The position numbers were made by a program, and so were the translations under genes. This document shows, in pieces, positions 17,013 through 21,349 of a stretch of DNA of 29,529 bases. The stretch's first letter is position 1. Each line of letters begins with the position of its first letter. The notes beneath the pieces are model-generated. The model saw nothing but the letters and a program-made list of their open reading frames with translations, was not told the DNA's origin and did no database searches. This stretch comes from Phycisphaerales bacterium (GTDB lineage: Bacteria; Planctomycetota; Phycisphaerae; Phycisphaerales; UBA1924), in assembly GCA_035546115.1 (NCBI GenBank), contig DASZWV010000398.1, forward strand, positions 1 to 29,529, given 5' to 3'.

Positions 17013-18074
17013 ATGGCCGTGTACGCTTCGACTCCCGTGAACGCCACTCAAACGAACTCGGCCGCGTCTTCCCGCTCGCCCCGCACGGTTGCCGTCACCG
17101 GCTGCACCGGCTTTGTCGGCAGGCATGTCGTGCGAGAGTTGTTGGGGCGCGGATACCTGGTCCGGGGGCTCATCCGCGATGCGGAGAGGGCCCGCGGGGT
17201 GTTCGGGGCGCGGCCGCCCGAGGGGCTGGCGACGGTGGTCGGCGATGTGTGCGACGGGCAGGCCCTGGATGCGCTGGTTCGCGGGTGCGATGCGGTGATC
17301 CACCTGGTGGGGATCATCCGCGAGGTTCGCGGCGAGGCCGCCGATCTGCCGCAGACCTTCGAGCGGATGCACGTCCGGGCGACCAAGGCGATCGTGGATG
17401 CGTGCGCTCGCGCGGGCGTGCGGCGGTATCTTCACATGTCGGCGCTCACGGTCGGGCCCGAGGGGAAGAGCCGGTATCAGAAGACCAAGTGGGAGGCGGA
17501 GCAGATCGTGCGGCGGACGGAGTTGGACTGGACGATCTTCCGCCCGGGGATCATCCACGGGCCGGACGGCGAGTTCATGCAGACCATGGCGGAGCTGGCC
17601 TCGGGCGAGGCGCCGCCGTATCTGTTCATCCCGTACTTTGCGCGGGCGAGGGTGGACCATCGCGTGGTGATGGGCGCCGTGACGTACGAGCCGGCGATGG
17701 CCCAGCCGGTGGCGGTGGAGGATGTGGCGTTCGCGTTCGCGCAGGCGATCGAGACACCGGGGGCGATCGGGGAGATCTACAACCTCGTGGGCTCGGAGCG
17801 GCTGGACTGGCGCGAGATGGTGGAGTTCATCCGCGACACGATCCCCGGGACGAAGAAGGGGCTGGGCGTGTGGTACGTGCCGGGGAACCACGCCGCGACG
17901 CTGGCGCGGGTGGCCGACAGGATCGGGCTGGGGAGCCTGCTGCCGTTCGACGAGGGGCAGGCGCTCATGGCGACCGACGACACGGTGGCGGACCCGACCA
18001 AGGCGCGGGTGGACCTTGGGCTGGAGCCGAAGGGCTTTCGGGAGACGGTGCGGGGATATGCGGGGATGGTGTGA
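17013..18074 (+). CDS. Atypical SDR NAD(P)-binding protein (NDUFA9-like)
   Basis: VAVTGCTGFVG, VIHLVGII, YLHMSAL, YQKTKWEAE, FRPGIIHG, QPVAVEDVA. Confidence 0.9.
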   Translation: MAVYASTPVNATQTNSAASSRSPRTVAVTGCTGFVGRHVVRELLGRGYLVRGLIRDAERARGVFGARPPEGLATVVGDVCDGQALDALVRGCDAVIHLVGIIREVRGEAADLPQTFERMHVRATKAIVDACARAGVRRYLHMSALTVGPEGKSRYQKTKWEAEQIVRRTELDWTIFRPGIIHGPDGEFMQTMAELASGEAPPYLFIPYFARARVDHRVVMGAVTYEPAMAQPVAVEDVAFAFAQAIETPGAIGEIYNLVGSERLDWREMVEFIRDTIPGTKKGLGVWYVPGNHAATLARVADRIGLGSLLPFDEGQALMATDDTVADPTKARVDLGLEPKGFRETVRGYAGMV

Positions 18075-18670
18075 GCTTGGTAGCGAGTCGAGGTGTCACC
18101 CTCGCGTGTCTTTCACTCTGCTTCGCGGCGTGCGCGAGCGATCGGAGTGCTTACAAGCAGGGGTACGCGCAGGGAGTGTTCGATCTCCAGGGGCCGTTCG
18201 ATACGGGTCAGTCGATCACCAGCGATGGGGCGGGGCATGCGCTCTACGCGGAAACGTGGCTCTCCCGCCCTCGAAGTGCCGACGAAGTCGAGAACAACCG
18301 GTGGCCTCCGGCGGAGGCAATCGCGGTGCTGGACCTGCGCGACGTGCAGGGGCTGGACGGGCCCGGTGCGGGGCTGGGCGCGGAGAATGGCACGCTGGGA
18401 TTCGACCTGAACCTGATGCCCTATCTGCTGCGGCATTTCGGGGCAGCGCCAATCGTGGTGTACAAGCTGCCCTCGCTCGTGGAGCGGGAGAGGCGGGATC
18501 CGGCTGTTCGTCGCGCCGTGCAAAGGATTGTGGACGATCGGTACGAGGTTCGGGTGATCTCCGAGGCCTCGTTCGACAACTTCAACCCGGGCGCCACGCT
18601 TCCGCTGCATCCGAAGCCGTTCAGGTTCGTCGCCCCACGGTTTCGGCTGCGATCGGCGGATTCGCCGTGA
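18071..18670 (+). CDS. Hypothetical lipoprotein (199 aa)
   Basis: Last 199 codons of the tracked 17003-18670 ORF; GTGA overlap with upstream stop; lipobox FAAC. Confidence 0.65.
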   Translation: MSLVASRGVTLACLSLCFAACASDRSAYKQGYAQGVFDLQGPFDTGQSITSDGAGHALYAETWLSRPRSADEVENNRWPPAEAIAVLDLRDVQGLDGPGAGLGAENGTLGFDLNLMPYLLRHFGAAPIVVYKLPSLVERERRDPAVRRAVQRIVDDRYEVRVISEASFDNFNPGATLPLHPKPFRFVAPRFRLRSADSP

Positions 18671-18714
18671 AATGAGGCCCCACCTGCACGGATCGAGCGA
18701 ATCCGCCTCGGCTG

Positions 18715-18723
18715 TGCTACACT
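18715..18723 (+). promoter_or_regulatory. Extended -10 promoter (TGcTACACT) upstream of rnr leader
   Basis: TGnTAnnnT match 163 nt before the rnr ATG. Confidence 0.55.
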
Positions 18724-18729
18724 TGAGTC

Positions 18730-18872
18730 CGAAGGGGATTCGGCCGATGATTCGGCACGTTCGGGGGTAACTCAGATATCCTTGTTGGAAACCACCCCTC
18801 GCCGGGGATTTTTTCCGGCGGACGGTCCGTTGATGGGCCGGCGAATCCCTTCGTTTTTCTTCTCCTTTTTCT
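18730..18872 (+). ncRNA. Candidate structured sRNA or attenuator leader
   Basis: 18730-18746 pairs with 18839-18853 (15 bp, two bulges), followed by a U-rich tract 18854-18872; internal hairpins; begins 7 nt after the -10 box. Confidence 0.4.
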
Positions 18873-18886
18873 ACAGAGAGATTTGA

Positions 18887-21349
18887 ATGTCATTGAAGTT
18901 TGAGCGGCGTCTCGTTGAGCACTTGAAGCACGAGCGCTACGTGCCCGGCGCGGTCCGGGCCCTCGCGAGCGATCTGGCGATCGACTCGGAGGACATGCCC
19001 GAGTTCGAGGCGGCGGTGGAGGCCCTCGTGGGCAGGGGCGTGCTGACGCGGGATGGGTCGGGGAACATCAAGCTGCCCGCGATGGGCGACGAGATCACCG
19101 GCACGCTCCGCAAGAACCAGCGCGGGTTCGGGTTCGTGATCCCGGAGGCCGCGTTTCGCGAGGGGGATGTGTTCATCCCGCCGGACTCGATGCTCGATGC
19201 GCTCACGGGCGACGTTGTGCGGGTGCGCGTCTATCGATCGATGCGCAACGGATCGCCGGACGTGACGGGCGAGGTCGTCGAGGTGCTGGAGCGCAAGCGG
19301 GCCGGTTTCACCGGCGAGCTGAAGAAACGCGGGGGCCTGTGGGTTGTTCTTCCCGACGGCAAGGAGCTCACGCAGCCGATCGTCGTGAAGGACCCGGCCG
19401 TCAAGAACGCGAAGGAGGGCGACAAGGTCGTCATCGAGATCACGAGCTATCCGCAGGGTAACGAGCTGGGCGAGGGCGTGATCACCAAGGTGCTCGGCGA
19501 GGCCGGGCTGCCGGACGTCGAGACCCAGGCGGTCATCGAGGCGTTCGGGCTGCCGGGAGAGTTCTCAAGGGAGTGCGTCGATCAGGCGCGGGCCGCGGCG
19601 GCCAAGTACGAGGTCGATCTCCGCGAGGGCGATCGAAACGGATGGACCGACCGCATCGACATGCGCGACCAGTTCATCATCACGATCGACCCGAGCGACT
19701 CGAAGGACTACGACGATGCGATCTCGATCGCGCCGGCGCCCGACGGCGGGTGGTATCTCGGCGTGCACATCGCGGATGTGGCGCACTTCATCCCGCCGGG
19801 GACGCCGCTGGATGTGGAGGCGCGGGAGCGCGGCAACAGCTGCTACCTGCCGCGGATGGTGATCCCGATGCTGCCGGAGGTGCTGAGCAACGGGATCTGC
19901 TCGCTGTCGGAGGGCGTGGCGCGGTTCTGCAAGAGCGCGTTCATGCACTACGACGCGGATGGGAACATGCTCTCGGAGAAGGTCGGGGCGACGCTGATCA
20001 AGTCGGCCAAGCGGCTGACCTATCTGGAGGCCCAGGCGCTGATCGACGGCGACCTGCGCGAGGCCCGCAAGCACGCCAGGACGGAGCCGAAGTACACCGA
20101 CCAGTTGATCAAGACGCTGCGGTCGATGGACTCGCTGGCGAAGGTGATCCGGGCGAGGCGTCGCGCGGCGGGGATGATCCATCTGGACCTGCCCGAGGTG
20201 AACCTGATCTTCGACGATGCGGGGCACGTGATCGACGCCGAGCCCGAGGACGACTCGTTCACGCACACGCTCATCGAGATGTTCATGGTCGAGGCGAACG
20301 AGGTGCTGGCGCGCCTGTTCGCGGACATGCACGTGCCGCTCCTGCGGCGCGTGCACCCCGAGCCGCCGCCGGGAGATGTGCAGGACCTGCGGCAGATGGC
20401 GCGGGTCGCGGGGTTCGCGATCCCGAAGAACCCGACGCGCCAGGAGCTCCAGAACCTGCTGGACTCCACGGCGGGAACGACCTCGGCGCGGGCCGTGCAC
20501 TTCGCGGTGCTGCGGACGCTGACCAAGGCGGAGTATTCGCCGGCGGACATCGGGCACTTCGCGCTGGCGAGCGAGGCGTACGCGCACTTCACCAGCCCGA
20601 TCCGGCGGTACGCGGATCTGACGGTGCATCGTGCGCTCGCGGCGTACCTCCGGCAGACGGACAACGGGGCGAAGGGGCCCAGGTCGGAGAAGGACCGCAA
20701 GCGGCTCGGGCGCGTGCTCATGCAGCTCGGCGAGAAGCATGGCGTGATGAGCGAGGAAGACCTCGTCGAGATCGGCCGGCACTGCTCGGCGATGGAGAAC
20801 CGGGCCGAGGGCGCGGAGCAGAGCCTGCGCGGGTTCCTGGTGCTGCAACTGCTGACGAACCACCTCGGCGAGACGTTCCCCGGGTTGGTGACGGGCGTGA
20901 CCGGCGCGGGCGTGTTCATCCAGATCGAGAAGTATCTCGCCGAGGGGCTCATCAAGACCGCCGACCTTCCATCCGGGGGCGGGCAGCGGGGCGGGCGCTG
21001 GAGCGTTGATCAGCGCACGGGCGCGCTGGTGAACCAGGGGACCGGGCGGTCGTTCAGCGTGGGGGATCGCGTGGACGTGACGATCGCGGCGATCGATCTG
21101 GCGCTGCGGCGGATGGACCTGATCGTGGCCGATCCGCGAGCGCGCGATCAGGGCAAGGGCAAGCACGCCGGCAAGGCCGGTCCCGACGGCAAGAAGCCCA
21201 AGGACCGCACCCCGGCCAAGGCGAACGCGGGGTACGACGAGTTCTTCCACCACAACCGGCTCACGGGCTCGAAGCGGCGGGCGATGCGCTCCAAGCAGCG
21301 CGACCAGGGCAAGCAGGATTTCCGCGGGAAGAACAAGCGGGGCAAGTAG
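18887..21349 (+). CDS. rnr: Ribonuclease R
   Basis: N-terminal HTH and CSDs (RGFGFV), RNB motif IDPSDSKDYDDA, HFTSPIRRYADL, S1 domain, basic tail. Confidence 0.96.
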   Translation: MSLKFERRLVEHLKHERYVPGAVRALASDLAIDSEDMPEFEAAVEALVGRGVLTRDGSGNIKLPAMGDEITGTLRKNQRGFGFVIPEAAFREGDVFIPPDSMLDALTGDVVRVRVYRSMRNGSPDVTGEVVEVLERKRAGFTGELKKRGGLWVVLPDGKELTQPIVVKDPAVKNAKEGDKVVIEITSYPQGNELGEGVITKVLGEAGLPDVETQAVIEAFGLPGEFSRECVDQARAAAAKYEVDLREGDRNGWTDRIDMRDQFIITIDPSDSKDYDDAISIAPAPDGGWYLGVHIADVAHFIPPGTPLDVEARERGNSCYLPRMVIPMLPEVLSNGICSLSEGVARFCKSAFMHYDADGNMLSEKVGATLIKSAKRLTYLEAQALIDGDLREARKHARTEPKYTDQLIKTLRSMDSLAKVIRARRRAAGMIHLDLPEVNLIFDDAGHVIDAEPEDDSFTHTLIEMFMVEANEVLARLFADMHVPLLRRVHPEPPPGDVQDLRQMARVAGFAIPKNPTRQELQNLLDSTAGTTSARAVHFAVLRTLTKAEYSPADIGHFALASEAYAHFTSPIRRYADLTVHRALAAYLRQTDNGAKGPRSEKDRKRLGRVLMQLGEKHGVMSEEDLVEIGRHCSAMENRAEGAEQSLRGFLVLQLLTNHLGETFPGLVTGVTGAGVFIQIEKYLAEGLIKTADLPSGGGQRGGRWSVDQRTGALVNQGTGRSFSVGDRVDVTIAAIDLALRRMDLIVADPRARDQGKGKHAGKAGPDGKKPKDRTPAKANAGYDEFFHHNRLTGSKRRAMRSKQRDQGKQDFRGKNKRGK

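Follow-up and report, generated by a model that had tools for sequence, protein, structure and literature searches.

The rnr locus and its predicted leader

The window analyzed in this study is a 29,529-nt stretch of a Phycisphaerales metagenome-assembled genome (68% GC, 72% complete), and it contains rnr, a gene whose homologs in Phycisphaerales carry the name ribonuclease R, together with an SDR/epimerase gene upstream and a lineage-specific lipoprotein-like ORF inserted between the two (Table 1; gene starts are predictions of a home-made gene finder). The SDR gene directly precedes rnr in many relatives, and no relatives of the 199-aa ORF were found outside its own cluster. The gap left before rnr measures 216 nt, most of which is occupied by an end-paired RNA of about 130 nt that had been proposed in a first-pass annotation. 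The SDR-rnr junction is an insertion hotspot, which holds the orphan lipoprotein-like ORF here (18075-18670 of the window), an Mrr nuclease and an 81-aa gene on contig P0002, and repeat-like palindromic spacers at four loci (L007, L008, L045 and L048); in more distant relatives (L026, L028, L030, L165 and L166) a small divergent gene lies head-to-head with rnr. No canonical terminator was found between the upstream ORF and rnr. Between the stop of the inserted ORF and the promoter P1 lies an imperfect hairpin (18686-18717) that has no U-tract, and as a predicted structure it could be a candidate 3' end stabilizer of the upstream transcript; Rho is encoded in the genome. Genes for RNase E/G and RNase Y are also present, and a query for RNase J gave no match in this 72%-complete genome.

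Table 1. Features at the rnr locus (positions refer to the window)
Feature	Position	Strand	Description and basis
SDR/epimerase gene	17013-18074		upstream of rnr
Lipoprotein-like ORF	18071-18670	+	199 aa; lineage-specific, inserted between SDR gene and rnr
P1	18718-18723	+	-10 hexamer TACACT, predicted TSS 18729-18731; genome's own -10 consensus
rnr 5' UTR	18730-18886	+	157 nt, predicted; P1 position and rnr start
5' arm of closing stem	18730-18742	+	pairing p 0.90
Hairpin H1	18743-18756	+	p 0.99; also a DNA inverted repeat over the putative old -10
P0	18746-18751	+	putative eroded ancestral -10, GATGAT (relatives: TATGAT, TACTAT, TACCAT)
uORF	18747-18770	+	7 codons, SD-like purine run inside 5' arm; sequence
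Hairpin H2	18763-18799	+	weak, internal loops; outer helix p ~0.6
P2	18777-18782	+	further consensus -10 (TATCCT), lying within the proposed RNA
Hairpin H3	18800-18820	+	p 0.99-1.00
Hairpin H4	18823-18840	+	p 0.83
3' arm of closing stem	18842-18853	+	predicted pairing
U-rich pyrimidine tract	18854-18872	+	candidate S1/standby site or leaky terminator tract
Weak 6-bp hairpin	18861-18881	+	tract paired with SD-like AGAGAG (18875-18880)
rnr	18887-21349	+	RNase R, 820 aa; Pfam RNB (E 7e-103), OB_RNB, CSD2, S1

A generic sigma-70 scan of the region found no promoter, and the consensus applied here was derived from the genome's own leaderless genes. Leaderless transcription is widespread in this genome, with a -10-only promoter (TANNNT) standing 5-9 nt before about 450 start codons; the motif peaks at these distances (147, 163, 81, 73 and 54 cases, compared with about 15 for each position elsewhere), no -35 motif was seen in the genome's promoters, and a TG extension is barely enriched. 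The hexamer of P1 is the third commonest -10 hexamer found 5-8 nt before leaderless starts, and its score lies at the 56th percentile of the genome's real -10 sites and above 95% of coding-region TANNNT. An extended -10 had previously been read at 18715-18723; the typical -10 at 18718-18723 holds, the extension was not confirmed, given how little TG is enriched at that position. The start formerly placed near 18730 agrees with the range 18729-18731 predicted from the position of the hexamer, and this range is well placed since TANNNT peaks 5-9 nt before start codons. P2 scores at the 42nd percentile of real sites and above 90% of the coding background; it lies 110 nt from the ATG, the -10 of relatives ranging from 105 to 124 nt, and a start at P2 would give a 98-nt leader without the 5' arm. 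At P0 the first T of the -10 has been lost.

The segment 18730-18853 is predicted to fold at -60.0 kcal/mol, its four hairpins being enclosed by a closing stem of 12 bp that contains one bulge; z is -3.4 for ends hand-picked after the fact and -1.8 for the whole intergenic region. The motifs quoted in the first-pass annotation lie where it had placed them, and the -10 consensus together with the fold supports a structured, end-paired transcript segment with a promoter before rnr. Its end pairing of 17 with 15 nt shrinks to the 12-bp stem between 18730-18742 and 18842-18853. Neither of the two structural competitions that it described was recovered: the hairpin at 18743-18756 coexists with the closing stem (p 0.99 and 0.90), and CCCC/GGGG, the supposed competitor of CGCCGG/CCGGCG, has a pairing probability of 0.00 from 10 to 55 C. 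A single dominant fold is predicted over this temperature range, without a pairing switch, and alternatives imposed on it cost 4.3 kcal/mol (pairing of the 5' arm with the anti-SD at 18861-18867, which would free the SD) and 8.6 kcal/mol. A further helix, the ancestral-like 18799-18805/18838-18844 suggested by RNAalifold, was rejected at a cost of 6-9 kcal/mol in this leader. The inverted repeat at 18743-18756 straddles the putative ancestral -10 here and also in the sister species L004, more weakly in L003, with changes on both sides, and it could be a DNA operator instead of an RNA hairpin.

Directly 3' of the closing stem, seven of the eight nucleotides at 18854-18861 are U. Two other strains carry a T at 18853, by which the terminal pair is lost and the U run lengthened, so that the stem begins at G18731 and is followed by six U. 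The SD is weak (anti-SD duplex -4.0 kcal/mol) and is about 0.18 unpaired at 37 C, rising from 0.14 to 0.28 over 10-55 C, and opening of the ribosome-binding region is predicted to cost 12.3 kcal/mol at 15 C versus 6.4 at 37 C. The SD-like run of the uORF gives an anti-SD duplex of -8.7 kcal/mol.

The leader among other leaders of the genome and known RNA classes

As a comparison set we used the 104 promoter-led leaders predicted in the genome. A paired 5' end is found in 50 of them, end pairing of at least 8 nt in 26 and of at least 10 nt in 12. At least five U in the 8 nt that follow the stem occur in two of the 26 end-paired leaders, and the combination of stem and U-tract is thus present in 2/104. 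In the rnr leader, 14 U fall within a 20-nt window near the start codon, and at least 12 are reached by 2/104 leaders. The arm duplex amounts to -16.5 kcal/mol, which is borderline against shuffled downstream sequence (p 0.066). Strong intergenic U-tracts of the genome stand after a strong local hairpin in 84 of 173 cases and without one in the other 89; the tract of the rnr leader, before which no local hairpin was found, resembles the genome's terminator tracts. The tmRNA gene of this genome (G000:C508:3355-3716) ends flush with a six-U run and has no separate terminator hairpin after it.

No match to the window was obtained in an Rfam scan at gathering thresholds, the best permissive scores having E values of 3.1 and 8.6, which bears out the earlier statement that SRP, 6S, tRNA and common riboswitch motifs could not be recognized. 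The SRP RNA of the genome (RF00169) was located on another contig (C125:4465-4564, 47 bits). For 6S RNA (RF00013), the region reaches 7.2 bits, the same as coding DNA, with a model trained on seven Phycisphaerales 6S-like RNAs, and no 6S RNA was found elsewhere in the 72%-complete genome. A tRNA, a tmRNA or a remnant of either was rejected as well (no ARAGORN hit; the longest shared word, 12 nt with tRNA-Gly, is shortened by a strain variant), and so was a REP/MITE repeat, the sequence being single-copy in the genome. Across ten genomes of the genus (G000-G009) neither RF00013 nor the Phycisphaerales-trained model gave a convincing 6S RNA (best E 0.016), other genera of the family and order do have one, and the 6S RNA of the genus may have been lost or have diverged highly. 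The Phycisphaerales 6S-like RNAs (L200-L206) have a distinctive conserved core, and five of the seven fall below the Rfam cut-off.

As to regulatory elements in general, a U-rich tract directly after a helix is present, as in a canonical intrinsic terminator, and a local GC-rich hairpin abutting the tract is absent. A conserved and covarying sensor domain of a riboswitch or attenuator was not found among relatives, of which only two independent lineages align, with differing structures and in too small a number for statistical covariation testing. Mutually exclusive structures of similar energy were not found either, the alternatives costing 4.3-8.6 kcal/mol. The SD does lie in a weak hairpin, as in an RNA thermometer, but a sharp change with temperature in the direction of induction is lacking. 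Of the features of a structured 5' UTR with a 5'-terminal stem, an upstream promoter consensus, location on the strand of the gene and a helix at the predicted TSS are present.

Conservation of the leader and proposed turnover of its promoter

A survey of 104 non-redundant rnr loci, this one included, found rnr leaderless in 39, behind a -10 and an unrelated leader of about 13-240 nt in 43, and after the SDR gene with a short spacer in nine, with 13 unclassified; rnr therefore needs no conserved leader element. Judged from these sequences, it is the promoter at rnr, and not the leader, that is widespread. BLAST of the DNA in 40 relatives returned only one 27-nt match at chance level (E 0.007). 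A covariance model built from this leader and those of L003 and L216 recovered no additional member among 43 rnr loci, and in 120 genomes of the family it gave only partial 21-bit matches at chance level. Conserved structure, the lack of which the first-pass annotation had itself named as speaking against its proposal, is thus largely missing in relatives. Our literature search turned up no publication that deals with a leader element of rnr or with leaderless promoters in Planctomycetes.

Seven genus-level relatives carry a -10 at 105-124 nt before the start, and the leaders at this level share only a plan of GC-rich hairpins, followed by a pyrimidine tract and an SD. Distant homology was seen with two sister species only, L003 and L004, which align collinearly with the leader with modest support (for L003, global p 0.003-0.02, best local match p 0.09); 18729-18748 shares 17/20 identities with the sequence just before the -10 of L003. 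In this register the 5' arm corresponds to the promoter spacer just upstream of the consensus -10 of L003 and L004, and that -10 aligns on P0. Alignment anchored on the -10 gave P0 a z of 4.1 with L003 and 3.1 with L044, against 0.9 and -0.3 for P2, which favors P0 over P2 as the ancestral promoter. An alternative, non-collinear match is given by a shared G5-AA word at 18759-18771 (p 0.1). Between the upstream terminator and the -10, both L003 and L004 lack any TA dinucleotide, so the 5' arm is probably not transcribed there. A closing stem is predicted in L003 (7 bp with two G-U pairs, z -3.1) and is absent from L004, the U-run is displaced in L003 and absent from L004, and an H1-like hairpin is predicted in both. 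The uORF is not conserved, with no ATG in the aligned leaders of L003 and L216.

In the protein tree, this genome and P0002 are sister to L044, L003 and L004 (support 92/94), with L009, L010, L011 and L117 outside this group, and by parsimony this topology makes a -10 at 105-125 nt ancestral in the genus. P0002, the closest relative (89% identity; a search with shorter rnr fragments found none closer), has a 210-nt gap before rnr that follows a divergent gene, and thus needs a promoter there too. Alignment and tree together suggest that P0 was taken over by P1 in the lineage of this genome.

Proposed origin of the leader, competing explanations and significance

The leader is real but lineage-specific and structured, and most likely it represents an ordinary lineage-specific 5' UTR of the rnr mRNA and not a conserved regulatory RNA. 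We propose, with a probability of about 0.55, that the 5'-terminal stem of this 157-nt UTR shields the mRNA and that its pyrimidine tract aids ribosome loading at the weak SD. The ancestral state in the genus would have been a -10 about 105-125 nt before rnr, followed by a leader with GC-rich hairpins, then a pyrimidine tract and lastly a weak Shine-Dalgarno sequence. P0 would then have lost its consensus in this lineage, and P1, 28 bp upstream, would have taken over the start of the transcript, making the mRNA begin with 13 nt that had formerly been G-rich promoter spacer. This G-rich 5' arm would pair with the C/U-rich 18842-18853, and the resulting 5'-terminal stem would cap a five-way junction and putatively hide the 5' end from pyrophosphate removal and from 5'-end-dependent decay by RNase E/Y. 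The unpaired U-rich stretch behind the stem might act as an S1/standby site on which the 30S subunit lands before opening the weak SD hairpin. Use of P1, silence of P0 and both functions of the leader are what we infer from these predictions. In favor of this proposal are the genome-specific -10 consensus and its spacing at P1, the one dominant fold without a switch, the absence of a conserved leader among relatives, the alignment of the 5' arm just upstream of the -10 of L003 and L004, the tree that makes this -10 position ancestral, and the frequency of paired 5' ends in a genome that encodes RNase E/G and RNase Y. On the other hand, the U-tract begins at the first base after the stem, like the genome's terminator tracts, in a combination that is rare among the leaders. 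In addition, several positions of the 3' arm are not as in L003, nearly all of them in ways that improve pairing, a hint that a specific stem has been selected for; the 7-bp closing stem of L003 would need transcription from upstream of its -10; and the homology is modest, its global p value coming from L003 only.

The stem can be likened to the 5' stem-loop stabilizers of E. coli ompA and papA; 5'-terminal stem-loops were reportedly found to stabilize mRNA in E. coli by Emory, Bouvet and Belasco in 1992 (cited in PMC3997798). The helix of the rnr leader likewise begins at the predicted TSS or 1-2 nt from it, its sequence is not conserved and the relevant enzymes, RNase E/G and RNase Y, are encoded; it differs in being long-range and closing a 124-nt five-way junction, and a stabilizing effect is putative. 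The multibranched fold also sets it apart from the rod-like 6S and SRP RNAs, which it resembles in size and paired ends. Autoregulation of rne, pnp and rnc relies on endonucleolytic cleavage in the leader, and no such cleavage site or conserved structure was identified in the rnr leader. It nevertheless shares a long structured leader on a ribonuclease mRNA with E. coli rne, pnp and rnc, which a passage of PMC3997798 describes as autoregulatory RNase-gene leaders; that passage does not list rnr as an autoregulated gene. For the pyrimidine tract, the comparison is with S1-dependent enhancers and standby sites (PMC2176067; PMC5934652), among which A/U-rich enhancers promote the initiation of translation (PMC2176067). 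The tract is partly single-stranded and has a weak and structured SD beside it, its distance to the start codon being 15-33 nt, and pyrimidine tracts recur in the genus-level leaders; unlike A/U-rich enhancers it is U/C-rich and half of it is predicted to pair with the SD, and its role in Planctomycetota is putative.

It is possible, though we consider it unlikely, that the leader acts as a leaky long-range intrinsic terminator, in which the closing stem, joined by pre-folded inner hairpins, releases some transcripts at the U-tract. Part of the P1 transcripts and of the read-through from the SDR operon would end there, dampening rnr and leaving the 130-nt RNA as a by-product, and P2, whose transcripts lack the 5' arm, could supply rnr independently. 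The zero gap between stem and a tract with 7/8 U, extended to six consecutive U in the T18853 strains, is what such a terminator would show, the tract resembles the genome's terminator tracts where no canonical terminator precedes rnr, and L009 and L010 also show a 5' stem and then U-rich runs. However, canonical intrinsic terminators need a hairpin abutting the U-tract (PMC3993855), and this stem has a loop of about 100 nt, other pairings take up about half of the 5' arm until the 3' arm has emerged, strong U-tracts without a strong local hairpin are common in this genome (89/173), the U-run is displaced in L003 and absent in L004, and no regulated antiterminator was found. The attenuator of the first-pass annotation is not supported, as neither an aptamer, a T-box, a conserved leader peptide, a competitive low-energy antiterminator nor a local terminator hairpin accompanies the tract. 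A composite of these ideas seems very improbable to us, namely a recently evolved attenuator in which the 12-bp helix closing the 100-nt multibranch domain became a terminator out of an exapted promoter spacer, the tailed 130-nt RNA titrates RNase R, and the internal promoter or 5'-arm/anti-SD switching sets rnr output.

Less likely than a leaky terminator is a merely incidental stem, in which P2 or SDR-operon read-through feeds rnr and a G-rich stretch pairs a pyrimidine-rich one by chance. P2 scores like a real promoter and stands at the same distance from the ATG as the -10 of relatives, and chance pairing would fit the arm duplex p of 0.066, the whole-region z of -1.8, the 12/104 leaders that are as end-paired and the polymorphic terminal pair. 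Against it, P1 scores slightly better than P2 and lies exactly 6-7 nt before the stem, and flanking sequence ties the ancestral -10 to P0 and not to P2. We give still less credit to a regulated switch responding to temperature or translation state, in which the 5' arm pairs by turns with the 3' arm and with the anti-SD, or is stripped by a ribosome on the uORF. The 5' arm to anti-SD pairing, which frees the SD, costs 4.3 kcal/mol, the uORF has an SD-like run (-8.7 kcal/mol), and RNase R is cold-induced in S. pneumoniae (PMC3534368); but the pairing stays the same from 10 to 55 C, homologous leaders lack the uORF and 39 relatives are leaderless. Since the ribosome-binding region becomes harder to open in the cold, the change runs in the wrong direction for cold induction, and the suggestion of a thermosensor is not supported.

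We regard as highly improbable that a stand-alone small RNA gene, trans-acting or a decoy of RNase R, merely happens to be located before rnr. RNase R needs a 3' single-stranded tail, and an end-paired RNA with a U tail would resemble the 3' end of the genome's tmRNA, with P2 serving rnr separately. The sequence is however single-copy, the 40 relatives lack a DNA match apart from the 27-nt one, the three-homolog model yields nothing new in 43 rnr loci and no more than partial 21-bit matches in the 120 family genomes, and the RNA is not SRP, 6S, tRNA or tmRNA. The autoregulatory decoy put forward in the first-pass annotation is further weakened in that decay of a released RNA would give a 3'-to-5' exonuclease no direct route to its own full-length mRNA.

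As an ordinary lineage-specific leader, which we favor, the element matters little and has a modest value as an example of promoter turnover, in which an old -10 decays, an upstream one arises and former promoter DNA turns into a 5'-terminal RNA stem. If the long-range stem does terminate transcription, it would offer a rare natural example of an intrinsic terminator that lacks a local hairpin, and a new way of controlling RNase R.
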